The notes below the pieces were generated by a model, which was given only the letters and a program-made list of their open reading frames with translations, made no database searches and was not told the origin of the DNA. This document shows, one piece after another, positions 1-16,738 of a stretch of 52,267 nucleotides of DNA. Made by a program: the position numbers and the translations under genes. Source of the stretch: a virus (Duplodnaviria > Caudoviricetes); IMG/VR virus record IMGVR_UViG_3300012683_000011, positions 1-52,267 of that record. One strand, given 5' to 3'. Positions within the stretch are counted from its first letter, which is position 1. Each line of letters starts with the position of its first letter.

Positions 1-3
1 CGA

Positions 4-1618: not shown

Positions 1619-1621
1619 ATC

Positions 1622-2311: not shown

Positions 2312-2340
2312 ATTATAACCGATGAAATTCACTCTGTCAA
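2312..2340 (-). promoter_or_regulatory. consensus sigma70 promoter
   Basis: TTGACA-17 nt-TATAAT on the minus strand, upstream of ORF 1622-2215. Confidence 0.85.
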
Positions 2341-2799
2341 TAGCCAATATGGCTTTTTCTGGCGACGGTAGTCCCCGGACCTAACTCGTGTACGCTTATA
2401 GAGTAATCTATAACTCTCGTACATATCTGAGCTTACACAGTCAGCCGGAAACGTAACTCTAGGTTCAATCCAACCGTTAGTTGGAAAAGCCTTAATGTAT
2501 TGCATTAAAATTGTATCAAATTTCCATGTACGCAACCCTCCATAATAAATATCATTGTAGCGGGAAATGACGTGTTGGTAGAAATTCTTAACCCAAAGTA
2601 CGTGATCTCGTGACAACGTGACCCACAATAAGTTTGGGTGATTTTGTAAATCTAATGCATAATGTGGTTCTAAGATCATGCAAAGTATTGCTGAAGAAAG
2701 TAACGGTTCAAGTTCCTTAGCATACTTTTGTATAGTTTTATCACTGAGCCACCAAGCGCATGTTTGTGGATCAGGATGTACGAAGTATATGGGTTCCAT
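2329..2799 (-). CDS. divergent pyrimidine-dimer DNA glycosylase (DenV/Pyr_excise)-like protein
   Basis: IYFVHPDPQTCA..SDK..QK...LLSSA..NHP..LWV resembles the family pattern IFxLDxDPxxxA..DKHxxKM..NHP..W. Confidence 0.55.
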   Translation of the reverse strand: MEPIYFVHPDPQTCAWWLSDKTIQKYAKELEPLLSSAILCMILEPHYALDLQNHPNLLWVTLSRDHVLWVKNFYQHVISRYNDIYYGGLRTWKFDTILMQYIKAFPTNGWIEPRVTFPADCVSSDMYESYRLLYKRTRVRSGDYRRQKKPYWLLTE

Positions 2800-2808
2800 G
2801 TGTCACCT

Positions 2809-3012
2809 TCATTTGAAGCGTAGTTCAAAGGTTTCTGATAAAATAAGTTTAGGAAAGCCTACATACTTACGGCCAATTGGCATCGTGACACCGTGATCTA
2901 TAAAATAACAACTTGGAACCCCATTCGGGTATGAAATAACTACATATAAAGTCGATAATGGTAAATTCAAGGCGAATTTTAGCATTTGTTCTGTATATTG
3001 TTGTTTTGTCAT
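2809..3012 (-). CDS. hypothetical protein
   Basis: 67-aa ORF in operon context. Confidence 0.55.
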   Translation of the reverse strand: MTKQQYTEQMLKFALNLPLSTLYVVISYPNGVPSCYFIDHGVTMPIGRKYVGFPKLILSETFELRFK

Positions 3013-3108
3013 ATTTATAGACCGGAAGTAAGCCCTAACTCTATAGGGTATTGGCGGTTATGGCGCGCAGTTAAACGTTTAACCCTCGGCATGGAGTAAA
3101 AATGCCAG

Positions 3109-3242
3109 TGCGATAGAATAACGTTTATTGAAAGTAGGTATGGTATGTAAAAAGTAAGTAGTAGTTATATAGGGGGTAGATATATGGGATTCCCCATTTT
3201 CCAATGCCTTACCCTTATTCTTAAAAACGTCATTCTATCGCA
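3109..3242. repeat. inverted repeat around an AT/purine-skewed core (candidate origin)
   Basis: TGCGATAGAATAACGTTT (3109-3126) vs AAACGTCATTCTATCGCA (3225-3242), one mismatch. Confidence 0.7.
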
Positions 3243-3388
3243 TCGATCGGTGGCTAGGGGGTATTTAGTTAACAGGTGTTAACATTGGCCCATTGCAGCT
3301 TGCAGTGGCCCCAGGATCGACGCTAGGTGGCCTAGGCTGCCCCAGGCTCGACGATCTAGCTTAAAAGGTGGCAGAGTAGGGGGTGGCC

Positions 3389-3877
3389 CTACCCATGGTC
3401 AGATTGATGTGAAATGTACTGATTTTGAAGAGTTTTAAGTTCTTTTTCAAGAGCATTGACACGTTGTAACAGTGTTTCTTTGTCTTCAATAATCGCTCTA
3501 AAATTCATTAAAAGAACTTCTTTTAGACGAACTTTTAGACGAAAATGATTTCTAATTTCACTTTCACCAGTGAATTCACAAACACAATCTTCGTCTAAGA
3601 ATTGCTCTAATTGTTTTAGTGGTAATGTGACTTCGTGACAACGTGACGTTGTAATGTTTGGGCTAACGCTATCTAAAATATTAAAAGCATTACTTTCAGC
3701 TACAATGTCTACAACTTGATTACATTGATTTGCCATTTTAAAAGCTTCTTGTCGTAACGTATCTCTATATTCTTTTTGTTTTACTAAATCATTATTATAC
3801 CAAAAATAAGGTAACGCGGATATACAATGTCTCACAATGTCACCAGACGCATAGCGATTGCTTCCCAACGGGGCCAA
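3389..3877 (-). CDS. hypothetical protein with C-terminal coiled coil
   Basis: 162-aa ORF. Confidence 0.65.
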   Translation of the reverse strand: MAPLGSNRYASGDIVRHCISALPYFWYNNDLVKQKEYRDTLRQEAFKMANQCNQVVDIVAESNAFNILDSVSPNITTSRCHEVTLPLKQLEQFLDEDCVCEFTGESEIRNHFRLKVRLKEVLLMNFRAIIEDKETLLQRVNALEKELKTLQNQYISHQSDHG

Positions 3878-4089
3878 TTTACGTACTTCTCAAAACCTTC
3901 GAGAAACTTGTGAAAGTCTCTCATAATCATGTCGTACATTTGCGTAAGAGAAACAATAAGCTTCTCTCGACACGTTGAACGAAGCTTCATATTGCTAACC
4001 GCATTAGCAATCTTCTTCGTGTACTCATCAATTGCTTGAGAATTGATGATTAGTGTGTCGTGTATAATAAACTTAGCCTGGAGAATCAT
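3832..4089 (-). CDS. hypothetical protein
   Basis: ORF preceded by GAGGT RBS. Confidence 0.65.
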   Translation of the reverse strand: MILQAKFIIHDTLIINSQAIDEYTKKIANAVSNMKLRSTCREKLIVSLTQMYDMIMRDFHKFLEGFEKYVNWPRWEAIAMRLVTL

Positions 4090-4270
4090 TTGTTACCTCG
4101 CCTTCACTTTTGTAGTAGTGGGTACGGATGAATAAATTTAACTTGTCGATAAGATTAAATAATTCAACTAAATTCTTTGCCTCAAATAAGTCTGTTGGCC
4201 TACTAATATTATCTATGTGAGCGCTCATAGCAGTAATTAACGTAGCAGCTTCGCCTTTACTCAGTTTCAT
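4073..4270 (-). CDS. hypothetical protein (start probably MKLSKGE...)
   Basis: GGAGG RBS before the ATG at 4270 inside track ORF 4073-4369. Confidence 0.6.
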   Translation of the reverse strand: MKLSKGEAATLITAMSAHIDNISRPTDLFEAKNLVELFNLIDKLNLFIRTHYYKSEGEVTNDSPG

Positions 4271-4736
4271 TGGTAGCCTCCATTGGCTTGTCACAGACAA
4301 GTTTCTTTTTCGGGACCATTTCTTCTGTTTCAACCCACTTACAGGATTGACCACTAATATGAAGCTCAATCAAAATATTGTTATTGCGCCAATATTTACG
4401 TAAAGAGCGCTCAGGGTCATCTTTATTAGGCCAATCTTTTCTAGCCCCAAAGCCATTGAATGAAAGAGCCTTCAAATATGGTAAAATCTTTTGTGCATTA
4501 TCGAACCAAAGATCAACTTCTAATCCCTCGTCACCATATTGATAAAAATAAACGCAGTCAGTATCGTGGCCGTTTTCCTTAGCAACGTCGTAAACAATAC
4601 TGTAAAGTTTCTCGTATTTCTCTTTTACATTGTTACGTCGTTTCGCCGCTTCTTCCGCTTCTTTTGTTTGGTAAGCATTCCATGTTTCAAACGTTTGCAT
4701 AACTGTTCCTGTATACGAAGTGTGTTTGTGTTTCAA
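4257..4736 (-). CDS. hypothetical protein
   Basis: 159-aa ORF; true start may be the ATG at 4700. Confidence 0.7.
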   Translation of the reverse strand: MKHKHTSYTGTVMQTFETWNAYQTKEAEEAAKRRNNVKEKYEKLYSIVYDVAKENGHDTDCVYFYQYGDEGLEVDLWFDNAQKILPYLKALSFNGFGARKDWPNKDDPERSLRKYWRNNNILIELHISGQSCKWVETEEMVPKKKLVCDKPMEATNETE

Positions 4737-4917
4737 AGACTTGTCTTACAATTACTTCTTCTTGTAACAATTGATCTAAAGCTTGTATGAACACGTCGTA
4801 GCGGTATGTGTTCCAGGCGCCGACACCTAGTGACGCTTTTAGCTGTGAATAAGTTTTGTTATTCATCCGCAATTGAGCGACGATACTTTTCACCATGCTA
4901 GAAATGGGAATGAACAT
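4687..4917 (-). CDS. hypothetical protein
   Basis: 76-aa ORF overlapping its neighbours. Confidence 0.55.
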   Translation of the reverse strand: MFIPISSMVKSIVAQLRMNNKTYSQLKASLGVGAWNTYRYDVFIQALDQLLQEEVIVRQVFETQTHFVYRNSYANV

Positions 4918-5236
4918 AATCCGCTATTTCTTTGAATGTTTTATTTTGCTCGTCGTTAAGAGTAACGATTCTATGAATTTCATCTAAAGTGATTTTAAAA
5001 TGCAGTTCTGGTAGTATGTAAGTGGCGTTTGGCCCTTCAAAATGTGCCCCTGTAATTACAGCGTAATCATTCTCATCATAGATGATGCGTTGTTTTAGAA
5101 CAGCGTGACGAAGAATCCCAAGTGCGCAGTAATGGCAATCTCCGTCAATGATCTTTACAAGATCAAGTGTACAGTGTTTATCTTCATCAGCATTATTTAA
5201 TGCTTCGACGAATTGTTCTTTTAAATGAGGGTCCAT
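4898..5236 (-). CDS. conserved phage hypothetical protein (YCALG...LND..TFKEIAD type)
   Basis: AAGGAA RBS; motif pattern typical of small phage proteins. Confidence 0.7.
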   Translation of the reverse strand: MDPHLKEQFVEALNNADEDKHCTLDLVKIIDGDCHYCALGILRHAVLKQRIIYDENDYAVITGAHFEGPNATYILPELHFKITLDEIHRIVTLNDEQNKTFKEIADYVHSHF

Positions 5237-5250
5237 GTTTAGTTCCTTTA

Positions 5251-5333
5251 TACCCGTGGTCAGACTTGCACTGACAAGGCATCACTGCCGGCACTTTTTA
5301 AAAATGCTATGTTTGCTATTTCATCACACGGGC
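5251..5333 (-). tRNA. trnL: tRNA-Leu(TAA), no encoded CCA
   Basis: Acceptor GCCCGTG/CACGGGT, anticodon arm GCATT-TTTAAAA-AGTGC, long variable arm GGCA-GTGA-TGCC, T arm GTCAG-TGCAAGT-CTGAC, discriminator A. Confidence 0.85.
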
Positions 5334-5342
5334 GAGTGAAAG

Positions 5343-5510
5343 TTACTTTTTAAGTATTTTGTCTGTGGTTGTACGAACTGAAAAGTATTCAACGATAAAT
5401 TGTTTTTCACCATGCAATAGAGTTTTACGCCACGTTACGCTAAACCCCATGCGTCTTAATTCATCGCGACGTTGTAACGCCGTGTCAATGTGGTTAAAAG
5501 TTTCGATCAT
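5343..5510 (-). CDS. 55-aa hypothetical protein (below the track cut-off)
   Basis: MIETFNHIDTALQRRDELRRMGF...; ATGA overlap with the upstream stop. Confidence 0.65.
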   Translation of the reverse strand: MIETFNHIDTALQRRDELRRMGFSVTWRKTLLHGEKQFIVEYFSVRTTTDKILKK

Positions 5511-5695
5511 ACCATTTCTGCCTTACAGTTACAATAGTAAGGAAATTCCAGTACCCAAATGACTTCTTTAATTTTATACATTATATTTTTGTAGTAAATT
5601 AAATCGCCCCATGCAGGCGGGGAAGGTAATTCAAATAAGTCATCTTGGTGTTTAGTTTCATTTTTGAGTATTTTAAACTCGATATTAATTTTCAC
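5507..5695 (-). CDS. hypothetical protein
   Basis: GGAGG RBS; GTGA overlap. Confidence 0.65.
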   Translation of the reverse strand: MKINIEFKILKNETKHQDDLFELPSPPAWGDLIYYKNIMYKIKEVIWVLEFPYYCNCKAEMV

Positions 5696-5901
5696 AACTT
5701 ACCTCCGTAAAGATGGGCACGAATTCTTAGTGCTTCTTTAATAAGATGTTTGTATTGATCGGTTTTACCGTAATGCTTCTTAATCACTTTAGCGGAGTAA
5801 CGCAAACGTTTGATTTCGTTGTTGACTCGTTCACTAATAATTATAGTCTTATTAGAGTTAGTTTTGCGACAACGAATTATTCTGGTTATTTCAGTACGCA
5901 T
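5692..5901 (-). CDS. basic hypothetical protein
   Basis: translationally coupled ORF. Confidence 0.6.
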   Translation of the reverse strand: MRTEITRIIRCRKTNSNKTIIISERVNNEIKRLRYSAKVIKKHYGKTDQYKHLIKEALRIRAHLYGGKL

Positions 5902-6136
5902 AAAGTTTTCGTCTTCGTAATTCAGTGATTATACTAAGATATTCTTCATTTTCATCAATCAATTGCTGCATAAGCAACTCCACAATAACTTCACGGAGTA
6001 TGTTTATATCTTCCGTATCTACTTTATTAAGTAGAGCAATGATTTTATCGCGGAATTGTTTGTGCGTCATTGTTACTCCGTTACTCCAATTCAAGAGTAA
6101 ATTTGTATGGCTTACCATTGGTGGATTGAATTTCAA
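5891..6136 (-). CDS. hypothetical protein
   Basis: ORF; probable start MTHKQ at 6070 after GGAG. Confidence 0.6.
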   Translation of the reverse strand: MKFNPPMVSHTNLLLNWSNGVTMTHKQFRDKIIALLNKVDTEDINILREVIVELLMQQLIDENEEYLSIITELRRRKLYAY

Positions 6137-6293
6137 AAGACTTAATCTTTCGATCCGTACCCAACTCTAAGTAAACACCATTATTTTCGTACAATACAAC
6201 CCGTTTAATCGCTGCTTGCGCAACTAATGCAGAAGCTAAACCGACTGCTATAGAGAATACTATTACTGTGAGCCAATAAAAAAGTTTATTCAT
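6081..6293 (-). CDS. small protein with N-terminal TM helix
   Basis: hydrophobic segment LFYWLTVIVFSIAVGLASALV. Confidence 0.65.
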   Translation of the reverse strand: MNKLFYWLTVIVFSIAVGLASALVAQAAIKRVVLYENNGVYLELGTDRKIKSFEIQSTNGKPYKFTLELE

Positions 6294-6651
6294 ATTTCTG
6301 CTTTATGAATGCGAGAATATTAGCGGCGACTTGTTCTTTGGTTGCTTCTTTACCAAGACTAATATTGTTATATCTGTGTCGATTTGGGGTACCTTCAAAA
6401 TCTGGCCAAAAGAGATTCATAAATTCATCCGTTTGTAAATCAAAGAATTCTCTTAGAACACAGAAGTCTGTTTTTCCTTTGAAGAAATTTGCCCACATAA
6501 ACCAAGCTTCACCCATTGCACAACCGCACGTTGGTGAACATGTCGTTGCACTAAAAGTATTAAAGTCAAACTTCTCGTGGTAGAGGTTACCGCGGATTAA
6601 ATGTTTGACTAATTTAAGCAAACGTTGTTTATGATGTAGTTTTGTAGTCAT
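6286..6651 (-). CDS. hypothetical protein (Cys motif CGCAMGE)
   Basis: 121-aa coupled ORF. Confidence 0.7.
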   Translation of the reverse strand: MTTKLHHKQRLLKLVKHLIRGNLYHEKFDFNTFSATTCSPTCGCAMGEAWFMWANFFKGKTDFCVLREFFDLQTDEFMNLFWPDFEGTPNRHRYNNISLGKEATKEQVAANILAFIKQKYE

Positions 6652-6854
6652 TGTTTCTTCTCGAAAAGTGGTTTACTAGGGCCTGGGCAAAACTCTGTTA
6701 ATGTTTTAGACCAAAGTGATAAACCAGCAAAATGTTGTTTTAGAACTTTGGGGTGAGCGCAGTAAACACCATCAGGATCAGCCCCAGCGTATTTACAATG
6801 TTCGCAACGTCTATTTTCCACAGGTTTCATAATGCCTCTGCTGCGTGTTTCCAA
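6648..6854 (-). CDS. small Cys-rich protein
   Basis: CEHC...C...C pattern. Confidence 0.6.
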   Translation of the reverse strand: METRSRGIMKPVENRRCEHCKYAGADPDGVYCAHPKVLKQHFAGLSLWSKTLTEFCPGPSKPLFEKKQ

Positions 6855-7102
6855 AGACCGTCAATCTTTGTGCCATACTCAATGAGTAACTTACCTTTTT
6901 CTCTTGTTAGCTGCGTTATTTCTTCACTACTTGTGTAATACTCATTAAGTTTTTTATCTACAGAGTCTAATTGTTCTTTAAGTTTCTTACACTCAATAAG
7001 CTTTTTAATGATGTCTTTGAGGTCTTCGATTTCATCGTTCCTTTGATCATTACGATAATCGTCGAATTCAGCATCAGCTTTTGCATCATAGTCTGTAGTC
7101 AT
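6827..7102 (-). CDS. coiled-coil hypothetical protein
   Basis: GGAGG RBS; coupled ORF. Confidence 0.7.
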   Translation of the reverse strand: MTTDYDAKADAEFDDYRNDQRNDEIEDLKDIIKKLIECKKLKEQLDSVDKKLNEYYTSSEEITQLTREKGKLLIEYGTKIDGLWKHAAEAL

Positions 7103-7320
7103 TTGTTCCTCCAGTAGCCCATGCTAGAGATGATGAAGAAGAAACATTGTGTCAACGTGACACCGAAATTAGCAGTGTAGATTGACCATGTTATCATTAA
7201 TACATTGGCGAGTAAATAGAGTGTGAAACCTAAACGTCTCGACTTGCTTAGCGGTGACGTTGTGAGGATTGCGCCAGCGACGCTAATTGGAAACGCCATA
7301 TACTGAAGATCATTTAGCAT
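7099..7320 (-). CDS. three-TM membrane protein (PnuC/PQ-loop-like fragment)
   Basis: three hydrophobic helices with GF..YLLAN...W and GYWRNK. Confidence 0.6.
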   Translation of the reverse strand: MLNDLQYMAFPISVAGAILTTSPLSKSRRLGFTLYLLANVLMITWSIYTANFGVTLTQCFFFIISSMGYWRNK

Positions 7321-7717
7321 AATCTAAAACTCTTTTATACTCACGGTCCCAGGAATCAAAGAAATAAAGATCGCCGTCGCGCATTACGGGGCATTCAAAT
7401 TCTTCAAGAATTTCACCTAATAGAAAGAAAAGATTAAATCGTTCACGATTTCGCATTACGATACTTGCTAATGCTACCTCGTGACTTCGTGTAGGTTTAG
7501 CGAAACTAATTTGGTACATGAAATCTTCTTCAATATTGTAGCAAATCTCAAAGTTCTCATCGGGGAGAAATGCTTTCCAATAAAACTTCTGCCCATGAAT
7601 TTCGTTAACAACGTCATGATCTTCGTTGCATGCAATACGCATTCTACTTCTCCGCCAAACAATCACCGTTGGTGTTATAAAAATCGAAAGCAAAAGGGCA
7701 ATTCTTTTTAGCGCCAC
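7310..7717 (-). CDS. hypothetical protein
   Basis: ORF; probable start MRIAC after GGAG. Confidence 0.6.
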   Translation of the reverse strand: MALKRIALLLSIFITPTVIVWRRSRMRIACNEDHDVVNEIHGQKFYWKAFLPDENFEICYNIEEDFMYQISFAKPTRSHEVALASIVMRNRERFNLFFLLGEILEEFECPVMRDGDLYFFDSWDREYKRVLDYAK

Positions 7718-7934
7718 AAAGTCTACATGAAAAATCGTTAATTGTTACATTGTATTCTTTGAATAGTCCAGTAGCTTCAGCAGCGATTTGGTAGAGAGCA
7801 GCGAATTGAAGAGTCGATGGCTTTTTGAAACTAATTTGGTCGTGAATATTCCCCGCAGGTAATTCAAAAGTGTCACCAAGAGAATAAAGAGTCATTTCAA
7901 TGTCTGGTGGCGTCTCGTTGTCGGCTATTTGCAT
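7644..7934 (-). CDS. hypothetical protein with C-terminal Cys cluster
   Basis: CRLC...CPF...C pattern. Confidence 0.65.
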   Translation of the reverse strand: MQIADNETPPDIEMTLYSLGDTFELPAGNIHDQISFKKPSTLQFAALYQIAAEATGLFKEYNVTINDFSCRLCGAKKNCPFAFDFYNTNGDCLAEK

Positions 7935-7935
7935 G

Positions 7936-8031
7936 TTACCACTCGTCGTAATGTGTAGGTTTGTTAGGTGGCTTTTTCTCTTTATAGAGAATTATAGACC
8001 CAATAAGCATGATGAAAATAAATGTTAGCAT
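7936..8031 (-). CDS. 31-aa membrane mini-protein
   Basis: MLTFIFIMLIGSIILYKEKKPPNKPTHYDEW; stop abuts the next start. Confidence 0.45.
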   Translation of the reverse strand: MLTFIFIMLIGSIILYKEKKPPNKPTHYDEW

Positions 8032-8044
8032 AATTAATACCAAC

Positions 8045-8152
8045 GTAACGTTGTAACGATGGAACTTCTTAAAGCGCCACTTTGCTACTGGCCCGGGACT
8101 TCGCAACTGGTCTTTAATGGTTATTTCGTTTCAAACACCGTTACAACGTTAC
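8045..8152. ncRNA. stem-closed structured domain A
   Basis: Perfect 14-bp IR GTAACGTTGTAACG/CGTTACAACGTTAC; internal TTAAAG/CTTTAA stem; intergenic. Confidence 0.55.
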
Positions 8153-8159
8153 ATTTGAA

Positions 8160-8387
8160 TTACTTAACTTGCAGCATAAGATCGAGAATTGCGATCATAG
8201 CGTTGGTGGAAACTTCCATGTCGCTTGAATGGCGAATGTTCCAGTGATGCTTGCGCAGTTTGTGCCGTTCGCGTTCAGTCTTGCAAGCCTTCATTGCTTT
8301 GTGAAAGGATTTGCCAATCTTTGAATTGGTGGGGATGTTAGCGCTTACAACGGTGTGAAGGTTGCGCGCGTCTTTGTTATTGCTCAT
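8160..8387 (-). CDS. basic hypothetical protein with GC-richer codons
   Basis: GGAG RBS; 75 aa. Confidence 0.7.
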   Translation of the reverse strand: MSNNKDARNLHTVVSANIPTNSKIGKSFHKAMKACKTERERHKLRKHHWNIRHSSDMEVSTNAMIAILDLMLQVK

Positions 8388-8626
8388 TTTAACTCCGTGA
8401 GGTTGTACTTTGTGATTTGTGGGAGGAATTCATTTTCGTTGTACTGAAAAGCCCATTTATGGCCATAAATACGAAACATATTGTCCCTAGCGAATTCAAA
8501 AGACATATTTTCAAACTTAACATACTTCTGTGCATACAAAGAATTAAGTCCGAATGTAAAGTACCAATTTCCATTAGTCCTTTCATCGTTACTTATTGCT
8601 TGCATATTTAGCTCCAGCAATGTCAC
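8384..8626 (-). CDS. conserved phage hypothetical protein (WYFTFG...WAFQY)
   Basis: motif pattern seen in small phage proteins. Confidence 0.65.
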   Translation of the reverse strand: MTLLELNMQAISNDERTNGNWYFTFGLNSLYAQKYVKFENMSFEFARDNMFRIYGHKWAFQYNENEFLPQITKYNLTELK

Positions 8627-8751
8627 TGCTTATCAGCTTGCTAAAGGCTTTCTCGTTCCATAGTTAACGGATGTAGCTCGCTTGGTATGGAAGTACGTTG
8701 ACACTCTCGTCCGCAGAGACTAAACGTATTAAAGCAGTGACAATGTTGAAG

Positions 8752-8973
8752 TTAAGACTGAGTGATTTTCATTTGGTAGTAAACTTGAAATATTTTAATT
8801 ATTTCAACGTTAAATTGCGCAACCATCGTAGCTACAGTATTTTCTAAATCTTCGTTTACTTCGTTATTGTCTTCAAAATACTTTAGAAACTCTGGTTTAA
8901 TAGAGTTACGAATTGCGTCTGTTGTATTAATTGCAAACTTATCGATGTCGATACACAAGTCTTCGATTTTCAT
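8752..8973 (-). CDS. hypothetical protein
   Basis: AAGGT RBS; 73 aa. Confidence 0.65.
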   Translation of the reverse strand: MKIEDLCIDIDKFAINTTDAIRNSIKPEFLKYFEDNNEVNEDLENTVATMVAQFNVEIIKIFQVYYQMKITQS

Positions 8974-8991
8974 ATAGTACCTTGTTTAATG

Positions 8992-9179
8992 TTCACAATG
9001 TCACAGTGTAACGTATGCTCAGTTGATAAAACCTAGTATTAGTTACTTCCGCATCTTAATTAAGTTTACTGTGTCAAGGCTAACCACACAGTCATTACGA
9101 ATGATAATTAAGTTTATTAGCGGTCGCTTCGGAGGAACTTATCCATTATCGAAACTACGTTACGCTGTGACAATGTGAA
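8992..9179. ncRNA. stem-closed multibranch domain B
   Basis: 24-bp IR with 2 mismatches (8992-9015/9156-9179); nested CTTAATTA/TAATTAAG, ACTGTG/CACAGT and TCATT/AATGA stems; no ORF. Confidence 0.6.
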
Positions 9180-9181
9180 AA

Positions 9182-9280
9182 CTAAAAATTGTTATTTCGC
9201 GGAGCGGTGTACAATACTAAAGCTAACAAACCAAAGAATATTACAAAGTTTAGAATAGTTTGTAAAATAGCTATCAGCAT
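9182..9280 (-). CDS. 32-aa single-TM mini-protein coupled to the lysozyme gene
   Basis: MLIAILQTILNFVIFFGLLALVLYTAPRNNNF; TAATG overlap. Confidence 0.55.
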   Translation of the reverse strand: MLIAILQTILNFVIFFGLLALVLYTAPRNNNF

Positions 9281-9738
9281 TATAACCTCGCGCAGATGTT
9301 TTTAACTCTGTTTGGACACTGAATGAACCAACGTGAATTAATTAGTTCACGTTTCATTTCGGGAATATCATTGGATAAAAGAGCGGATTTAAATCTTTTG
9401 AATGTGTGGACTTTGTTGCCAAGGACGAAACAGATTTCGACGACGCATTCTTTTTGATCTGGCGTGAGGCTTGAGTAGCCACGCAATCTATTAGCAATTG
9501 ATTCAGCACTGGAAATATCTTCACGAAAGATTTCATCTGCTTGGTATTTTTGCAAACCGCGCAATTGCAAATGCCTAGAAATATCTCTCGAACTCCACCT
9601 GTGACCATAGCCAATCGTATCGTAACCGAGGCTATCTTTGTAGATTTCGCTCCGAAACCCTTCATTTTCTTTAATGTGGTCATATTGTGCTCCTTGAATA
9701 CTGTTGATGTATGTTGCGAGTGTAAGAGCTAAAAGCAT
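9280..9738 (-). CDS. GH24 (T4-type) lysozyme
   Basis: ENEGFRSEIYKDSLGYDTIGYG carries the E-X8-D-X5-T triad; C-terminal S.W..Q.P.R; hydrophobic N-terminus. Confidence 0.9.
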   Translation of the reverse strand: MLLALTLATYINSIQGAQYDHIKENEGFRSEIYKDSLGYDTIGYGHRWSSRDISRHLQLRGLQKYQADEIFREDISSAESIANRLRGYSSLTPDQKECVVEICFVLGNKVHTFKRFKSALLSNDIPEMKRELINSRWFIQCPNRVKNICARL

Positions 9739-9752
9739 AATTAACTCCTTAA

Positions 9753-9932
9753 CGTTGTAACAATGTCACAATAACTTGGTGTTTGAATCGTTCGTAGAGT
9801 TATGCTTACGATTACCCGTATTAAAGTAACCCAGGGCATTTCTATTTACTGTTCAATCCTTGAATACGTAGCAACCTTATATGAGGGCCGAATTTGTGTG
9901 CTACGAATTGTTATTGTAACAATGTTACGACG
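9753..9932. ncRNA. stem-closed structured domain H
   Basis: CGTTGTAACAATGTCACAATAAC / GTTATTGTAACAATGTTACGACG IR with 3 mismatches. Confidence 0.55.
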
Positions 9933-10143
9933 CAAAATCACTATAGGTTTGTTCATCAAGAATTTTGAAATGGCGGCGAATGAAACGGTGAGAGCGTTGC
10001 TTAAAACCAGAAATCGGAATATTCCAGCAGCAAGGACAGAATTTACCGTGGCGAACCGTCGCAGCAGGAATTCCGTTAATTGCATAGAACTTTGAAGGTT
10101 TGTGTTTCTTGTATTTGCCGCGAGTGCGAGGGGAACGTGACAT
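9925..10143 (-). CDS. basic hypothetical protein with CPCC motif
   Basis: GGAG RBS; 72 aa. Confidence 0.6.
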   Translation of the reverse strand: MSRSPRTRGKYKKHKPSKFYAINGIPAATVRHGKFCPCCWNIPISGFKQRSHRFIRRHFKILDEQTYSDFAS

Positions 10144-10145
10144 CG

Positions 10146-10373
10146 TTACTCCGTTGGGTAAAAATGTTTCACTATTTGTTCTAAATTATCAATTAGAAAT
10201 TCAGAACCAAATGTTGCCATTGGGTTGATTTCTAATTGCGCTTTCACAAAACGATCAAAATCTTGTTGTGAAAGCGTAACTGGAAAACTGAGTTTCATAT
10301 CTGTAGTCTTACGTAGATAGAGTTCGCAAGCGCGACGACGTGAAATTGTGTGAATTGTTCGGTATTTTAGCAT
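10146..10373 (-). CDS. hypothetical protein
   Basis: 75-aa ORF. Confidence 0.6.
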   Translation of the reverse strand: MLKYRTIHTISRRRACELYLRKTTDMKLSFPVTLSQQDFDRFVKAQLEINPMATFGSEFLIDNLEQIVKHFYPTE

Positions 10374-10390
10374 ATTGAGCCTGTAATGTT

Positions 10391-10554
10391 ACGACGTTAA
10401 AGAGTCTCAGAATTTCGCTGACTAGTGCTATCCATAACATCATGTTTAGGCAGTCACCCTAACTTAGATTTATGAATTGTACCCATAAAAGGTGATAACA
10501 CCAATGAGTGGAATACTCGCAGTATAATTGCGTTCTGAGACTCTTTAACATCGT
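10391..10554. ncRNA. stem-closed multibranch domain C
   Basis: 22-bp IR with 1 mismatch, ACGACGTTAAAGAGTCTCAGAA/TTCTGAGACTCTTTAACATCGT, enclosing about five small hairpins. Confidence 0.65.
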
Positions 10555-10737
10555 TCGCAATGTCACGGCGTTCTGTTAGTGGAGTCAAGCACTGTGAAAT
10601 TTCGACGGTGTACCGTGTACCACAAAAGAATTTAAAGCTCTAAATGCAGCTTTAGTAACGTAATTCAGTGTGGAATTGTAACCTTGAAATTTGTTTGTAG
10701 AGTGTGACTAGACTTAGTGACGACGTGACAATGTGAA
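10554..10737. ncRNA. stem-closed domain G
   Basis: TTCGCAATGTCACGGCGTT/GACGACGTGACAATGTGAA IR; internal TAAAGCT/AGCTTTA and AATTC/GAATT hairpins. Confidence 0.55.
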
Positions 10738-10902
10738 CGATGTTGCAATGTCTCTAATTCTGGTAAACTACGCCTTAATCATACTAATCCAACAGAGAGT
10801 TTAGCGTCTGCCAGAATTTAGATATGAAACCCTTGAAATCATTACGTAAAGTTAATACGGATTAATTTCTACAGGTATGAATTAGAGACAATGTAACATC
10901 GT
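10737..10902. ncRNA. stem-closed domain D
   Basis: 24-bp IR with 2 mismatches, ACGATGTTGCAATGTCTCTAATTC/GAATTAGAGACAATGTAACATCGT. Confidence 0.6.
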
Positions 10903-10954
10903 AACATCGTGTCGCCATTGTATGGAAATATTCTTTGAATGCAACGAATTTCTA

Positions 10955-11062
10955 CTACGAATTGTAGTAGTTGAAGAGAATCCGCATTTCCACGATGAGC
11001 GAAATTATCGCTTTGTTGCGGATGATGGAAGTGGCCAGTTCGTATTCACGGAAATAACTCAT
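10955..11062 (-). CDS. 35-aa mini-protein
   Basis: AAGGAG RBS; MSYFREYELATSIIRNKAIISLIVEMRILFNYYNS. Confidence 0.55.
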   Translation of the reverse strand: MSYFREYELATSIIRNKAIISLIVEMRILFNYYNS

Positions 11063-11085
11063 GGGTTGCTCCTTATTGATGTGGC

Positions 11086-11151
11086 GATGTAACTAAGTAA
11101 CTATTTATAGCTACAAATTTTGAGGCTATAACTTAATTACGAAGTGACATC
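11086..11151. other. long intergenic hairpin based on GTNAC motifs
   Basis: GATGTAACT/AGTGACATC base; TTATAGCT/GGCTATAA upper stem. Confidence 0.5.
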
Positions 11152-11165
11152 GTTACGTCAAGAAG

Positions 11166-11312
11166 TTAGAAATAGATTGAGAGGGAATTTTCATGTTCCA
11201 TCGAATTGAGCAAGCATGCGAAAGCTTGCAGGCTTTTTCTATCGATGAAAATTAGGCGTTGTTTACGCAGTGACGTTGTGAATTCTGAATCGGTGGATGG
11301 TGTATGTGTCAT
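11166..11312 (-). CDS. 48-aa mini-protein
   Basis: AAAGGAG RBS; MTHTPSTDSEFTTSLRKQRLIFIDRK... Confidence 0.55.
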   Translation of the reverse strand: MTHTPSTDSEFTTSLRKQRLIFIDRKSLQAFACLLNSMEHENSLSIYF

Positions 11313-11330
11313 AGAATGCTCCTTTGTAAT

Positions 11331-11612
11331 TGTGTGGTTGTTTATTAATTAGTTTTTAGTTAATAAACAACCACACAGCAGAGTTAACTTACTGTGTGGT
11401 TTATGTTTTCGTTCTATGGCGAAATAGAGTTACATTTCTATTCCGCTTCTCAACTTGAGCTAACAATGGCTCAGAGTTGCAACCACACTTTGTAGAGTGT
11501 GATTCCTAGGGTTCCAGAGTCCGACAATGGTGTCTCTGTGTACTAGGTTCTTTGGTCGCATTTGTTAAGCACTGTTGTTTCAGCGGCCGGTCTAATTCGT
11601 TAGAATTAGATT
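11331..11612. ncRNA. hairpin-dense non-coding region
   Basis: 18-bp perfect IR TGTGTGGTTGTTTATTAA/TTAATAAACAACCACACA plus a series of smaller hairpins. Confidence 0.5.
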
Positions 11613-11672
11613 TAGCATACATATACATAACAAATTCTCCCAGGGTTGGAAACTGGAAACTGTAACTTTAAG

Positions 11673-12125
11673 TTACGCAGCCTTGGCAACGGTGGCGCCA
11701 GCGTCACTCAAGGTGACACCAGCGTCCGAAGCACTCTTGATCGCACCGGCAAGATTTGCAGCGGTGGACAACATGACATCGTAACGACGGAAGTTTTCCG
11801 CCTCCTGCCGCGCGCCGTGGAAGTCGCCCTTGCGCTTGCAGTCTTCCACAAGCGACTTGTGCGAGTCGCGCCGCGCCTTGCACTGTTCACGGATGCTGTC
11901 GAGCATCGCGCGAGTGTGCTGGAACGGAACGCCCGACTTGGCAACTTCATGGCGGAAACTGTTCGCAAGGCTCATGATATTCTTATTCTGGTCCGACTCG
12001 TCCAGCTTGCTCCAATCGCTGAGGAAAGAGTTGATCGCCTTGGCGTGAGTACGCAGTGCGCTGGTCAACTTGGACACTTCCTTGGCGCTGGTATCGTTGG
12101 ACAGAAACTTGGAGATGATATTCAT
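11673..12125 (-). CDS. GC-rich hypothetical early protein (start probably MNIISKF)
   Basis: Helical, charged 150-aa ORF with visibly higher GC than the genome; flanked by a 28-bp IR. Confidence 0.75.
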   Translation of the reverse strand: MNIISKFLSNDTSAKEVSKLTSALRTHAKAINSFLSDWSKLDESDQNKNIMSLANSFRHEVAKSGVPFQHTRAMLDSIREQCKARRDSHKSLVEDCKRKGDFHGARQEAENFRRYDVMLSTAANLAGAIKSASDAGVTLSDAGATVAKAA

Positions 12126-12269
12126 GTGTATACGTGTACTTTCTTGCAACATTTGTTGCAAAGGATAGAAACTTACAATTTGCATACCATGCTACAAACT
12201 ATTGTTTGTATAACTTAGTATGTACAAACGGTAAGGTTTTACCCTGGGAGAGTTTGTTACGTATATGTA

Positions 12270-12660
12270 TTTTCAAGGCTGCAACTTTCTCCCAACCGTC
12301 ATTGCTGGCGGATGCCTGGCGCTTTTACAGAGTCTTTATTTCGGATGGTATTCAAACCCCATACTTTGCGTTAGGGCGATTCCTAGCCATCTTACTGCTG
12401 GTGTTACTCGTAGCTACGACCTTTGGACTCGCGTGACTCTGAGAGTCTTGGAGCGTCCCTATCCTCCGTTTCCGGAGGCTGGCCGTTTCGTCTGTACTGC
12501 AAACTGTTAGTTTTGCAGTGCGCTTTGCGTCTGAGAGAATCTTTGCAGGTATGTAGATTTCAGAGAGCCAACCACACTTTTTCAGTGGTATAGCCCTATT
12601 CTAAGGACCACGGATGATACTCTAGTTAGATGAACCTAACACAGACTAGAGTGTGTGATA
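12270..12660 (-). ncRNA. structured leader or ncRNA
   Basis: Consecutive hairpins including CCTCCG-GAAA-CGGAGG and CCGCCA-GCAA-TGACGG on the minus strand; no convincing ORF. Confidence 0.5.
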
Positions 12661-12664
12661 CTGC

Positions 12665-13210
12665 TGTAATGTGACGTTGTGACAATGTTTAGGCGCAAAC
12701 TAAGGATTGTGCATAAACGTATGTGTCATTGTGACATGGTACGTTGCAATATGCAATGGAGTGTGTCGTTTTGACAATTAGTAGTTTTTAGTGCTGTGTT
12801 TATTGATAAAAAGTGAGGGTTGTTACAACGTGACGTTGTTTTTGTAGTCACAATGTCACGTTGTAACAATCACACTTTCCAACGTTGCATTTACTATTCA
12901 CATAGTAACAGCCTGTGAGTAAGTCACACACTCACGATGTAACGTTGTCACTTTCACAAACTTTGGCACAGTTACGTCGTGACACTGTGACGATGTCACG
13001 TTGGTACTGTGTACTGGATCAAGAAGTATTTGAGACAGGCACAACGTGAGTTTGTACTTGATTGTGTAGTTGAGACGCTGTGACGTTGTCACGGTGTAGA
13101 GTTGTTAGTGTGCCAAAGTGTGACGCTGTGACATCGTGACATTGTTAAGTGTGTCACACAAGAGAGTGAGGGGGCGGGGAGGGTTTAGCGGTTGCATTGT
13201 TACATCGTGG
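12665..13210. repeat. dense cluster of (GTNAC-RNY)n 8-bp-period repeats
   Basis: e.g. GTTAC GTC GTGAC ACT GTGAC GAT GTCAC (12971-12999), GTGAC GCT GTGAC ATC GTGAC (13120-13140), and a 20-bp hairpin at 12820-12869. Confidence 0.85.
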
Positions 13211-13224
13211 GCTGGGGTAAGGGC

Positions 13225-13431
13225 TTAAATAAACTTTTTAATAAATTTTTCATAAAGAAGTTGTTTTCCACCATACCAACAATAAAGTCTCCCATAAGTA
13301 CAATGCCAAGTGTACTTTTTCATTTCTTGAACTAATTTTGTTTCGACTTTAAAAGAAGTAGGAACCCCTTTACCCATCCAACGAATAACTAATTCTGTAA
13401 CTGCATCATCAATTTTAATATATTCATTCAT
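13225..13431 (-). CDS. HNH homing endonuclease N-terminal-like fragment
   Basis: NEYIKIDD...VETKLV...YTW; paralogous to the upstream ORF. Confidence 0.5.
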   Translation of the reverse strand: MNEYIKIDDAVTELVIRWMGKGVPTSFKVETKLVQEMKKYTWHCTYGRLYCWYGGKQLLYEKFIKKFI

Positions 13432-13739
13432 TTTCTTACTACCATATTTTTAAAGCGGTAATCATGAAAGTTGCCCATCAGTACATTATTGAAGTTAGAA
13501 GTTTTTAAATAAAATTCTACAATAGTTCTTGATAACATAATATTTCTTGGATTAGGGTCAAAAACTTTACAATAAGCTTTATGAAGAACTTTATTCCAGT
13601 ACCATTTAATTTCTTCTAAGAAAGGGACTAACTTAGTATCTACAAGCAAAACTTCAATATCACCATCTGTGAAGTGTATTTCCAAATGTGTGTTTTCATC
13701 ATCAATCTTAATCCATTTATTTAAACTCTTCGCTGGCAT
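13428..13739 (-). CDS. degenerate HNH endonuclease-like protein
   Basis: NKWIKIDD...VDTKLV...KWYW...MLSRTI...GNFHDYRFKNM resembles the HNH scaffold without its catalytic His. Confidence 0.5.
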   Translation of the reverse strand: MPAKSLNKWIKIDDENTHLEIHFTDGDIEVLLVDTKLVPFLEEIKWYWNKVLHKAYCKVFDPNPRNIMLSRTIVEFYLKTSNFNNVLMGNFHDYRFKNMVVRK

Positions 13740-13757
13740 AGCAATATCTCCTAAACT

Positions 13758-13785
13758 AATATAAGCCTATTTTAACCAAAGTCAA
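13758..13785 (-). promoter_or_regulatory. putative sigma70 promoter
   Basis: TTGACT-16 nt-TATATT followed by an AGGAG RBS. Confidence 0.5.
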
Positions 13786-13956
13786 GTAGTTTTATTCACT
13801 GATAATATGGCGTAATCACGCCTGGGGGTATACCATTTTGAGAATGGATATACTATATAGAATAATATCCTAATATAATATAGTGATGATGTAGTAGTAA
13901 TATTCTCTTATACACCCGGGCCAAGTTACGCCATATTATCCGGGAATATAACTACT
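13785..13956. repeat. long imperfect inverted repeat around an AT-rich core at the strand switch (candidate origin or pac)
   Basis: GATAATATGGCGTAA/TTACGCCATATTATC core extending to about 45 bp; TATA-rich centre. Confidence 0.75.
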
Positions 13957-14049
13957 CCACACCACCACTAATAACCTTGATTTTTATGCATTGCATTTAC
14001 CCGCTCACGACGTAACGTTGTCACAAGCTCCCAAGTACAAAACCAAAAC

Positions 14050-15261
14050 ATGCACACAACCACATTAAAAGGGCTCCTAGATGGTATAACCTCAAAAGAC
14101 GAGCTATACCATGTACTTCGTAACCATAAACATTCCATACGTCGCTTAGTAAATCAATCAACTGGCAAACCTTTCATCGTCCCGCATCACCTACTTTGTT
14201 CAACAAAGAAAGAGTTCTTTTTATCATTACTATATAATACCGGCGTAACGTCGTCACTTTGTGACGCTGCTTCCGATGTAACTTCTCACTCTGGTATAAA
14301 ACAATCGCCAATACCACTCATTTTCCCACGTTGCCGTCCGCACGAAGAAAAATTTCGACGCCAGTTTAAACTCGCAACTTGGTTAGACGTTCCATGCGGT
14401 TCAATTTTTACTTATGAACTCTCGCGCCGCAACACTTGGCGCTGTCGTTTTGTTGGTTCAGATGGCTTTCGTTGTCGAGAATACTCAAAAAATAACACTT
14501 GCTTCTTTTGTTGGCATCACTATGCTCTGGCAGCAAAACTAATTCAAAATATGTCATCAGAAGAGCAAAACTTACTTGGCGCTTCAATAAAGTCACAGTC
14601 AATCCGTGAACTCTATGAAAAGCATTTAAATGATCCAAACAGGAAAAATATTGAATCTGAGCTAGCTTTAATGCGGACGCTATTAACTGCTGTTGTTTCT
14701 AACATTCAATCCAAATCACTAGCGGATATACCGCTTGATGCGATCGCAACGGTGGTGACACTTTGTGAAAAGGTATCTTCGGCTGTTCTGACTATGACTA
14801 ATATTGAGACTAAGCTTGGGGATAGATTTAGTATCGAGCAAGTTAATGTTATTACGCTGCGACTGCTTGAAAGTTTTGTTAAGATAACTCAGCCTAATGA
14901 AGAACAGTGTCTCCAGCTTGCGGCTGTCTTTGAGAATTTGTCAATTAATAAAACTTTGCCTGTTATTACTTTACACGGTTCTACTTCCGATACAACTAAG
15001 CAAGCGACTCAAAGTTCAAAAGCTACGTTATCACCAGAAGCTACAGATATAGTCGCGTTGACATATTATGATAAAGTTACGCCATCACATATTATTCCAA
15101 AGCATTTTACAGCAAATGACATTGCTGTTCGGGTAGACCCGAATGTTTACTCTGATAGATTTACTCGCCAACAAGACGCAGCTAATTTTAAAACTAAACT
15201 TGAGAACCTCAAGCGCGCCGATCCTGACGTAACGTTGCAACTAGCCAGAATGGGATTATGA
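14050..15261 (+). CDS. putative terminase small subunit-like protein
   Basis: First gene of the late arm; C..C..C..H cluster followed by LNDP...IESELALMR, as in TerS-like proteins. Confidence 0.5.
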   Translation: MHTTTLKGLLDGITSKDELYHVLRNHKHSIRRLVNQSTGKPFIVPHHLLCSTKKEFFLSLLYNTGVTSSLCDAASDVTSHSGIKQSPIPLIFPRCRPHEEKFRRQFKLATWLDVPCGSIFTYELSRRNTWRCRFVGSDGFRCREYSKNNTCFFCWHHYALAAKLIQNMSSEEQNLLGASIKSQSIRELYEKHLNDPNRKNIESELALMRTLLTAVVSNIQSKSLADIPLDAIATVVTLCEKVSSAVLTMTNIETKLGDRFSIEQVNVITLRLLESFVKITQPNEEQCLQLAAVFENLSINKTLPVITLHGSTSDTTKQATQSSKATLSPEATDIVALTYYDKVTPSHIIPKHFTANDIAVRVDPNVYSDRFTRQQDAANFKTKLENLKRADPDVTLQLARMGL

Positions 15262-15326
15262 GATATAATTTACTACTTTTACTTTGGTACTACTTTTCGT
15301 AACCACAACTTCATAGGAGCCACCTA

Positions 15327-15584
15327 ATGAAAATGTCTTGTGTTGTCGATGTCACGGTGTTTCATAAAAACAGTTCAGTAAAAGATTACTGTTACGATCA
15401 TAGAAATGATACTTGTTTTTATAAGGTAGTTAATACTATTGTTTATGTTGACGAGGGTGACGCCGTTATTACTTTTAAAAATGGAGTTAAGACTGTTATT
15501 TCAAAGGATCTTTGGGAAACCTTTAAACTTGAAACACAGTTTGATGTTTATAAAGAACCTCTTTTAACAAAGAGTGATGAATGA
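15327..15584 (+). CDS. hypothetical protein
   Basis: AGGAG RBS. Confidence 0.65.
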   Translation: MKMSCVVDVTVFHKNSSVKDYCYDHRNDTCFYKVVNTIVYVDEGDAVITFKNGVKTVISKDLWETFKLETQFDVYKEPLLTKSDE

Positions 15585-15940
15585 AATATGTCTTGAAACA
15601 TAAAGAAATCGACGTAACTATGTTTGATGGTAATAATCATGTAGATTTAAAATTACATCGATTAGTAACCCATGATGAGAAAGTTAAATTTGTTATTTAC
15701 ACAGAATATGGTCCTTGTGAAGTTAATATCGGGGATTACATTGTATCCGCTACACAGCATTCACCACGTCAAGTCATATCAAAAGAAACGTTAGATGAGT
15801 TCTACGAGAAAGAATTCGTTCCACAATGGGCGCAGACGCCAGAACCACAAACTCTTTTAGTAACTTCAGATGCGTTGACTAAAATGCCTTCACCACCCGA
15901 TGCTCCCCATAATATAGATTTTGGAGGAAAAGGGCAATAA
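15581..15940 (+). CDS. hypothetical phage protein (GDYIV motif)
   Basis: TEYG...IGDYIV...F...YE pattern. Confidence 0.65.
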   Translation: MKYVLKHKEIDVTMFDGNNHVDLKLHRLVTHDEKVKFVIYTEYGPCEVNIGDYIVSATQHSPRQVISKETLDEFYEKEFVPQWAQTPEPQTLLVTSDALTKMPSPPDAPHNIDFGGKGQ

Positions 15941-16135
15941 ATGTCTCTAATTAAAATTAGAGTTGGTAATTACAATGTGACTTATAATATGTGTACTTGT
16001 ACATATGTTCGTGACTTAGTAGAAAAGATTTCAAAAGACTTCTCTAAACCAGCTAAGTTAGTCGAGCGGCATCAAAAGTATTTTGATGAAACAGCCGCTG
16101 CTGTAGGTGAAGAAATCGAGATGGAGTTTATATGA
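15941..16135 (+). CDS. hypothetical protein
   Basis: coupled ORF. Confidence 0.55.
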   Translation: MSLIKIRVGNYNVTYNMCTCTYVRDLVEKISKDFSKPAKLVERHQKYFDETAAAVGEEIEMEFI

Positions 16136-16440
16136 AAGTTAAAGTTAACAAGAATCAATTTCAAACTACTTATGAGTTTTATTGCCCAGGTTGTAAATGT
16201 CACCATGCTTATAGAACCGAACAAATGGAAGGGCAAGTTGGCCCAATCTGGCAATTTAACGACGACACTGATAAACCTACGTTTACTCCTTCACTTCTTT
16301 ACAGATCCGACTTCAAGCATGATCCTCGCCAAGCAAAAAATATTTGCCACATTTACATGACGAACGGCGTCATATCGTTCTTAGGTGACTGTACCCATGA
16401 GTTCGCCGGTAAAACTTACGAAATGCCAGATATAACGTGA
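16132..16440 (+). CDS. DUF6527-like Zn-binding protein
   Basis: CPGC..H...WQFN...PTFTPS...CH...DCTH. Confidence 0.7.
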   Translation: MKVKVNKNQFQTTYEFYCPGCKCHHAYRTEQMEGQVGPIWQFNDDTDKPTFTPSLLYRSDFKHDPRQAKNICHIYMTNGVISFLGDCTHEFAGKTYEMPDIT

Positions 16441-16730: not shown

Positions 16731-16738
16731 ATCTATTT

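Follow-up and report, generated by a model that had tools for sequence, protein, structure and literature searches.

The DNA analysed here, referred to below as the window, is a whole virus record of IMG/VR, a linear sequence of 52,267 bp with an estimated completeness of 87%. It carries a family of intergenic elements, each formed by two complementary arms around a non-coding interior, which are the subject of this work. About 13% of the phage genome is absent from the record. Matches to PHROGs identify a tailed phage with genes for a large terminase (16739-18346), a portal and a tape-measure protein (30353-33472), together with replication genes including those for a family-A DNA polymerase (40467-42377), a primase-helicase (42685-45525) and a helicase (49413-51263). 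The minus strand carries the genes between about 13.7 kb and position 1 as well as those between 52.3 and 40.2 kb; the genes of the stretch 14.05-40.16 kb are on the plus strand. The repeat elements at 8-11 kb are located in the leftward arm amid small orphan open reading frames (ORFs), a lysozyme gene recognised by Pfam (9280-9738) and a tRNA-Leu gene (5251-5333). Searches with megablast and with blastn of the region revealed no DNA-level kin among 50,697 phage records, and the closest protein matches among GenBank phages are about 33% identical. The source is a novel, uncultured siphovirus from soil with a lytic-type genome.

Nine elements were identified, with arms of 17-31 nt that are 83-100% complementary and interiors of 74-148 nt. 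Two of the stems are just 17 bp long. They are given here with an outer stem that surrounds three of them.

8045-8152, minus strand: element A; arms 8045-8061 / 8136-8152, 16/17 paired; interior about 74 nt
8608-8755, minus strand: element I6; arms 8608-8631 / 8732-8755, 20/24 paired; interior 100 nt
8985-9186, minus strand: element B; arms 8985-9015 / 9156-9186, 27/31 paired; interior 140 nt; central A.A at 8998
9753-9932, minus strand: element H; arms 9753-9775 / 9910-9932, 20/23 paired; interior 134 nt; central A.A at 9763
10391-10554, minus strand: element C; arms 10391-10412 / 10533-10554, 21/22 paired
10547-10744, minus strand: element G; arms 10547-10571 / 10720-10744, 22/25 paired
10737-10902, minus strand: element D; arms 10737-10760 / 10879-10902, 22/24 paired
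10385-10400 / 10893-10908, minus strand: outer stem round C, G and D, seen in the minus-strand fold
46900-47010, minus strand: element R, in the replication-gene arm; arms 46900-46916 / 46994-47010, 17/17 paired; interior 77 nt
3109-3242, minus strand: element E3109; 18-nt arms, 17/18 paired, without GTNAC units; interior 98 nt

An earlier note on this DNA had described six domains closed by inverted repeats (A, B, H, C, G and D). All six were recovered, with boundaries that differ by at most 7 nt. Elements I6, R and E3109, the outer stem and an array at 12660-13145 (see below) had been overlooked. The arms of A read GTAAC-GTT-GTAAC and a weaker extension of their pairing reaches 8031-8166. 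Elements C, G and D indeed follow one another head to tail (with the bounds of the note, their lengths are 164, 184 and 166 nt) and form a cluster, 10385-10908, in which neighbours overlap by 8-nt junctions. In the minus-strand fold of this cluster (-169.7 kcal/mol against -113.6 +/- 5.9 for shuffled sequences, z -9.5), all three closing stems are visible, as is the outer stem. Element R is flanked by gene 47021-47851, whose product is Pam3 gp34-like, and gene 46450-46875, while E3109 is found inside a non-coding gap (3013-3388). With a rule requiring a score of at least 13 and arms 40-260 nt apart, the window contains 13 inverted-repeat pairs against a mean of 0.45 in 20 shuffles, and eight unrelated phage loci scanned with the same rule contain about 2.9 pairs per 52 kb. 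The sequence CTCTTTAAC, noticed post hoc and possibly there by chance, occurs in both arms of element C (10395-10405 and 10540-10550); in passing, it matches what we take to be the core of the boxA antitermination signal.

All elements sit between minus-strand ORFs, reaching from the point where the upstream gene stops to a point just short of the ribosome-binding site of the next gene. In I6, B and H, the right arm contains the upstream stop codon, which in A (at 8160) and R lies 7 and 10 nt beyond the arm, respectively; the distance from the end of the left arm to the next start codon is 2-24 nt. In I6, the right arm includes the stop codon of gene 8752-8973 and the left arm the GGAG ribosome-binding site for the start at 8605. 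The right arm of B includes the stop codon of a 32-aa ORF (9182-9280), and gene 8752-8973 starts 11 nt beyond its left arm. Similarly, the stop codon of gene 9925-10143 is found in the right arm of H, and an AAGGAG sequence and the start of the lysozyme gene (9738) lie 3-14 nt beyond the left arm. The ribosome-binding site in both H and B is 3-7 nt beyond the arm. The elements fill the intercistronic space exactly.

Neither promoter-like nor terminator-like sites are enriched in the region 7000-14500 (19 against 20.3 expected and 6 against 5.4 expected, respectively), and a 10/12 promoter match occurs in element B only. Hexamers with TTG in the arms, which resemble -35 boxes, were considered as promoters and rejected because the left arms are too tight for a -10 box and a leader. 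The PeSL cassettes of T4-type phages are repeated regulatory motifs at gene borders which can drive shuffling, according to their description (PMC2839356). PeSLs resemble the elements in being a repeated non-coding motif that borders small orphan genes in a variable genome region, but they consist of a sigma-70 promoter and a terminator stem-loop, neither of which is enriched here, and the repeats of the window are long-range rather than local hairpins. Upstream of the leftward genes, between them and a 403-aa gene, is a large inverted repeat (13785-13956) with 48-nt arms and an AT-rich 76-nt centre, carrying divergent sigma-70-like promoters recognised by consensus matches only. If its leftward promoter is used, the array at 12.66-13.15 kb and all the elements would be transcribed.

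With the exception of E3109, the arms are built, as first described, from the GTNAC motif: two or three units at 8 bp, with an inter-box spacer that is mostly R-N-Y. GTNAC occurs 293 times in the window (about 185 expected). A spacing of exactly 8 bp is found in 35 pairs of the motif, where 50 shuffles lead one to expect 0.8, with lesser peaks at 16 and 24 bp and runs of up to 4 units. Element arms hold 11 of these pairs, the array at 12660-13145 another 11 and about ten solitary sites the other 13; the stretch 14.3-46.9 kb has none. Since the spacer is mostly R-N-Y, the arrays are degenerate palindromes, and any two of them therefore seem partly complementary. The arrays outside the elements include the following.

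12660-13145, no strand assigned: dense GTNAC array, non-coding, about 500 nt; just leftward (downstream) of the first two leftward genes
14012-14024, no strand assigned: solitary GTNAC array with no inverted partner, 26 nt upstream of the 403-aa gene start (14050), at the start of the rightward operon
14245-14265, no strand assigned: solitary GTNAC array with no inverted partner, within the 5' part of the 403-aa gene
10134-10149, no strand assigned: solitary two-unit array overlapping the start codon of gene 9925-10143
51741-51761, no strand assigned: solitary three-unit array in the gap 51689-51957
3627-3647, no strand assigned: solitary three-unit array inside or beside ORF 3389-3877

The dense array contains nested imperfect inverted repeats (e.g. 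12934-12999 / 13080-13145), folds better than shuffles on both strands (z -6.6 for minus, -6.3 for plus), and is a candidate origin or main operator region. A 13-mer, ACGATGTCACGTT, occurs four times, in both arms of element R, at 10134-10146 and at 12990-13002, where the chance expectation is none. The ORF 9925-10143 (minus strand), whose start codon lies within the two-unit array matching the arms of R, encodes a very basic 72-aa protein with a C-P-C-C motif and no Pfam match, a candidate nucleic-acid-binding protein.

The presence of the box outside inverted repeats, in the solitary sites and in the array at 12.66-13.15 kb, suggests a sequence-specific reader which does not necessarily act on RNA, and in these places the boxes are probably bound by protein on DNA. 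This raises the possibility that the whole system operates at the DNA level: a phage protein would coat the 8-bp boxes with one dimer on each, making an operator, iteron or roadblock system, and the element arms would be pairs of arrays at both ends of intergenic spacers, perhaps looped together. We regard this as the chief rival of the interpretation put forward below, though a somewhat unlikely one. The strong 8-bp register speaks for it, as do the large number of pairs in the dense array and in sites without an inverted partner, the fact that solitary sites occupy the 5' end of the 403-aa gene and, elsewhere, a start codon, and the long stretch devoid of pairs.

Tandem-box operators provide a precedent for such a register, MetJ boxes and omega heptads being two examples. 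A third is the operator of ParG, in which ACTC boxes with regular 4-bp spacers each bind one ribbon-helix-helix dimer (PMC3130281). As a group, the ribbon-helix-helix operators (ParG OF/parH, MetJ, omega) share with the window short degenerate boxes in a fixed 7-8-bp register, direct or inverted, which follow one another in runs of 2 to 12. They have no counterpart of the partner-specific pairing between distant arrays described below, and the cognate protein was not found here: Pfam and PHROG searches of 68 ORFs gave no ribbon-helix-helix domain, although most of the products are orphans and a divergent one is possible, and the sole helix-turn-helix match (ORF 16437-16730) is weak and sub-threshold.

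Similar degenerate arrays in 8-bp register also occur in unrelated IMG/VR contigs, which again favours binding to DNA. A scan of IMG/VR for a pattern of four GTNAC units returned at least 119 stretches and, among the matches listed, none is kin to the window by tblastx, generic helicase and terminase hits aside. In two of the contigs (L031:3154-3516 and L072:991-1267) inverted four-unit arrays flank a centre that is C-rich, then AT-rich, then G-rich; that of L031 lies upstream of a Dda-like helicase gene. Unlike the element arms of the window, the spacers of both arrays are non-complementary. Both look like plain binding arrays, and the elements of the window have an extra pairing constraint. 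Contigs L098, L057 and L125 have degenerate GTNAC arrays in the 8-bp register as well. Arrays of this type in uncultured phages may represent a widespread and undescribed class of control site.

Within the window, pairing is specific to partners. When all arms were compared with each other, the best-pairing arm was the element's own partner in 8/8 elements, with diagonal scores of 14-20 and off-diagonal scores of 4.5-15. Five elements share the core CAATGTNNC; their inner bases are element-specific, yet partners match at 26/28 of these positions. Such a match is not demanded by box recognition alone, so that closure involves more than the box. Nor is closure a mere by-product of the box, since E3109 has an equal geometry without it. 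Coating of DNA arrays leaves unexplained both the complementarity at non-box positions with its preference for the own partner and the existence of a box-free element.

A further regularity concerns the centre of the stems. In I6, B, H, G and D, the plus strand reads CAATG in 10/10 arms and CATTG in none, where a perfect inverted repeat would have CAATG in one arm and CATTG in the other. This creates a central same-base mismatch, A.A on the plus strand and U.U in leftward RNA, at 10-13 bp from either helix end (counted from the alignments). The mismatch renders the duplex core exactly two-fold symmetric, as a homodimer on the folded stem would see it. A dimer bound to each double-stranded arm would give no reason for a fixed orientation of the central pair, which favours the folded stem. 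This strand-constant central mismatch is, in our view, the best single argument that a folded stem, of RNA or of single-stranded DNA, would be the functional object, and constant orientation in all ten arms is not explained by DNA arrays. The DNA-level explanation thus accounts well for the arrays and badly for the closure. Both may be true, RNA stems having arms recruited from a box used on DNA. The proposal of the earlier note that a single factor recognises a common closing stem survives in part: the stems form one family with a shared core and have features that would fit a single symmetric factor.

The constant mismatch also resembles the unpaired bases that mark the strand in integron attC sites, and hence brings in recombination or mobility. 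The arms would then be sites for a site-specific or folded-strand recombinase (inverton-, attC- or PeSL-like) or the ends of insertions that resemble miniature inverted-repeat transposable elements (MITEs) and have spread through the variable gene region. Inverted repeats with a conserved core and element-specific flanks around short segments would suit such a role, and so would the small orphan genes of this variable region, since only 1 of 11 left-arm proteins queried was found in the relative G001 and none in the relatives G003, G004 and G005 (see below). The shuffling attributed to PeSL motifs at gene borders (PMC2839356) would offer a phage example. Set against this, no recombinase, transposase, integrase or invertase was found among the 68 ORFs, some 13% of the genome being missing; target-site duplications are absent, the best abutting direct repeat being 0-3 nt in 10/10 boundary sets; the interiors are unrelated and so are not copies of one element; and three elements stand in tandem with no gene between them. 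We consider this explanation unlikely.

A comparison can be made with attC sites themselves: these too are imperfect inverted repeats, in which the ends are conserved and the interiors, of about 60-140 bp, vary, and they lie between small ORFs of the same strand. In such a scheme, each arm would carry two or three recombinase boxes, the arms would fold on one strand with the central mismatch marking the strand used, the unrelated interiors would be the variable loop, and the small orphan genes that differ between relatives would be shuffled. The elements would then be folded-strand recombination sites marking exchangeable gene cassettes, a functional analogue of attC, to which we give very little credence. 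The attC cores RYYYAAC and GTTRRRY have 3 and 2 matches, respectively, in 8000-11000, none at arm ends; a tyrosine recombinase (IntI) was not found in the 68 ORFs scanned of this 87% complete record; the tandem elements enclose no ORFs; and the genome is of lytic type. MITEs, Correia elements and REPINs are likewise intergenic sequences of 100-200 bp with terminal inverted repeats that may fold as mRNA hairpins, but their copies share interiors, in contrast to the elements.

The interiors had been presented in the earlier note as packed with nested hairpins, and the stems as freeing from the early transcript a set of different structured RNAs, a cargo of perhaps decoys or anti-defence RNAs; regulators were considered here as well. 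That they differ in sequence and lack a convincing ORF is borne out: stops occur in all six frames, 1/56 comparisons between interiors reaches z>3 and shared 7-mers are found in at most 3/9 elements. Comparison with shuffled sequences, a check which the note had proposed, gave a divided outcome. Taken whole, the elements are more stable than their shuffles (z -2.5 to -8.7), but interiors without their arms range from +0.9 to -2.6, no better than the coding background, so that hairpin-rich interiors are not confirmed; with the interiors alone near background, the excess of fold stability belongs to the arms. On the minus strand, the mean interior z of -0.98 is not distinguishable from the -0.48 of sense-strand coding windows (standard deviation 1.06, n=37). 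Low folding energy of a whole domain can stem entirely from its closing repeat, and gives no evidence of a structured cargo.

Some properties are those expected of a cargo: about 1.4 kb of non-coding interior (summed from the coordinates) is kept in a compact genome, its G+C content of 34-46% is like that of the surrounding genes and not AT-rich, and on the minus strand C, G and D each have an interior that folds a little more stably than its shuffles (z -1.9 to -2.6). The interiors nevertheless have no common architecture or sequence and no counterpart in four relatives. No Rfam family had been recognised previously, and a scan of the whole window at gathering score indeed gave 0 matches. A permissive scan of 7800-13300 (E up to 5) gave sub-threshold matches only, mostly to microRNA-precursor (hairpin) models; most are at 11.3 and 12.8 kb and none overlaps an element. 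The cargo is therefore unsupported, and we hold it to be improbable.

Relatives of the phage were obtained by protein-alignment scans: G001 (52.6 kb), G003 (51.1 kb), G004 (51.4 kb) and G005 (20 kb), whose large terminase or primase is 41-47% identical to that of the window. The large terminase query led to G001 and G002 at 47% and the primase alignment to G003, G004 and G005 at 42-47%. A lysozyme query retrieved relatives at 30-35% only, the primase-helicase query alone nothing, and the terminase alignment against metagenome contigs nothing closer than 37%. A scan of a genome collection for the primase gave a single hit, at 34%, on contig L173, binned as Candidatus Saccharibacteria. G001 is syntenic with the window across the structural and replication modules. 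The three-unit GTNAC array is absent from G001, G003, G004 and G005. In G003, G004 and G005, the 8-bp periodicity is absent as well and inverted-repeat pairs number 1, 4 and 1, respectively; G001 has 6, of which 3 are in an 18-bp iteron array. The syntenic place in G001 (L149:10460-11130) is a non-coding, repeat-rich leader with two head-to-tail closed units (10757-10938 and 10924-11107) that have a related core, ACAATGTCC; the first unit is one long hairpin throughout. By this comparison, the element family is a lineage-specific expansion.

Other repeats were observed in these genomes. A repeat with 56-nt arms (L149:9219-9462 of G001), syntenic with 13785-13956, contains TTGACC-17-TATAAT within the right arm. 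At L149:11520-11990, an 18-bp unit (near GCGCGCGTGTCCGGTGAG) is repeated in tandem about 25 times, with an inverted copy at 11990-12010; this looks like an iteron array and is without counterpart in the window. In G004, nested pairs (127-149 / 306-328 and 161-184 / 273-296) lie at L169:127-328, near the left end of a record that has direct terminal repeats.

A family restricted to one lineage, with interiors that look unconstrained, might also consist of relics without present function, i.e. box arrays of a rapidly evolving region, duplicated and inverted by replication slippage or recombination and tolerated as junk. We find this hard to accept, since nine elements hold 83-100% arm complementarity while their interiors share nothing, five stems have the same central mismatch, and the arms lie precisely at stop codons and ribosome-binding sites.

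The interpretation that we put forward, with a probability of roughly one in three (about 0.35), is that the arms pair in the leftward polycistronic transcript, as stems for processing, insulation or coupling. The sequence itself shows the inverted repeats and the preference of each arm for its own partner, the 8-bp periodicity of the box, the same-base mismatch at the centre and the position between ORFs; that there is one transcript, that its arms pair as RNA, that it is cleaved or couples translation, and which factor acts on it are inferences. In the minus-strand transcript, the two arms of each element would form a 17-31-bp helix, which would begin at the stop codon of the preceding gene, end a few nucleotides short of the next ribosome-binding site and loop out the 74-148-nt spacer. 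The helix would be the functional part, targeted by a factor that has two-fold symmetry and is specific for double strands; the simplest candidate is RNase III of the host. The action of this factor would separate or insulate neighbouring cistrons. Since the upstream stop codon lies inside or beside the 5' arm, translational coupling is also possible: a terminating ribosome would melt the helix that starts at its stop codon and so couple the downstream cistron to the upstream one. The interiors would be spacers, neither conserved nor specially structured, and the arms would have been recruited from the phage's own 8-bp GTNAC boxes.

Several known features fit such stems, as does the additional outer stem round C, G and D. 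RNase III requires about 20-22 bp, a value bracketed by the 17-31 bp of the elements, and T7-type processing stems are sited between the upstream stop codon and the downstream ribosome-binding site. The operon with the elements includes, besides the lysozyme ORF, the tRNA-Leu, which must be excised from any longer transcript. The early RNase III sites of T7 are, like the proposed stems of the elements, double-stranded stems between cistrons, and the long-range stems that flank 16S and 23S rRNA enclose a large interior, which is set free. T7 sites, however, are single short irregular hairpins, whereas here the stems close 74-148 nt of unrelated and apparently unconstrained sequence; and the predicted phage stems are built from an 8-bp periodic box, often with a central same-base mismatch.

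Other observations weigh against pairing in RNA. A plain hairpin would suffice for processing, and the long interiors are unexplained. Pairing in RNA does not account for the 8-bp register, the solitary arrays or the large array. The nine stems have 19 mismatches in total, 5 central A.A, 2 G.A and 12 of transition type. Six of the latter are wobble-compatible on the plus strand and six on the minus strand, so that the transcribed strand has no signature, an absence of strand bias that agrees with a role on DNA; in I6, G and D, a mismatch 3 nt from the centre is G.U on the plus strand and C.A in minus-strand RNA. Folding energies show no preference for either strand. Neither RNase III nor another candidate factor was found by Pfam or PHROGs in the 68 ORFs scanned. 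The element family is also absent from G003, G004 and G005, and G001 has at most two analogous units.

Some neighbouring genes deserve mention. The lysozyme gene (within 9182-9738, minus strand) is situated in the leftward arm, distant from the structural genes and with small orphan neighbours. It is followed by the 32-aa ORF, which is hydrophobic, as is a 31-aa ORF beside element A (7936-8031); both are on the minus strand. The first two leftward genes (13225-13739, minus strand), encoding 103 and 68 aa, are paralogues with 36% identity over 53 aa. The 103-aa protein (P0002) resembles HNH_3-type endonuclease clusters (ESM Atlas score 0.96) and is an orphan in an exhaustive HMMER search; a likeness by eye to the two first early proteins of G001 was dropped, as BLASTP shows no similarity. 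A word-index search with the 403-aa gene product found no homologue besides itself. Three consecutive minus-strand genes (47021-49178) match Pfam families named after the cyanophage Pam3 (gp34-, gp33- and gp32-like). A near-perfect local hairpin (11331-11377; 21-nt arms, 95% paired, 5-nt loop) lies in a stretch, 11.2-11.6 kb, whose coding is doubtful. The stretch is present in one soil metagenome DNA run, possibly its source, and no RNA run is listed as containing it. Contigs of that DNA run compared with positions 1-20000 showed no joints and had ends at 1697-1713, 9773-9792, 11000-11020 and 14987-14997; no conclusion is drawn from either.

In summary of the comparison with known systems, the elements lack the defining features that were tested of PeSLs, MITEs, attC sites and every Rfam family, and share only geometric features with processing stems and box operators. 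Three traits are unusual: the arms consist of units of a periodic box, partner arms specifically close interiors that are unrelated to each other, and the central mismatch has a constant strand orientation. In the literature within reach, which excluded most subscription journals, neither 8-bp GTNAC arrays nor spacers closed by inverted repeats were found described in phages.

The pattern, real and odd as it is, belongs to a single uncultured genome. Should the stems act as RNA, they would provide a modular punctuation of a long operon, a like symmetric helix at each gene border built from a box that the phage uses elsewhere. This would be nature's equivalent of the insulator parts in synthetic operons, and nucleases specific for double strands would have a substrate of a new kind. 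If instead the boxes act on DNA, the GTNAC arrays at control regions of unrelated uncultured phages would point to an undescribed family of box-coating regulators.

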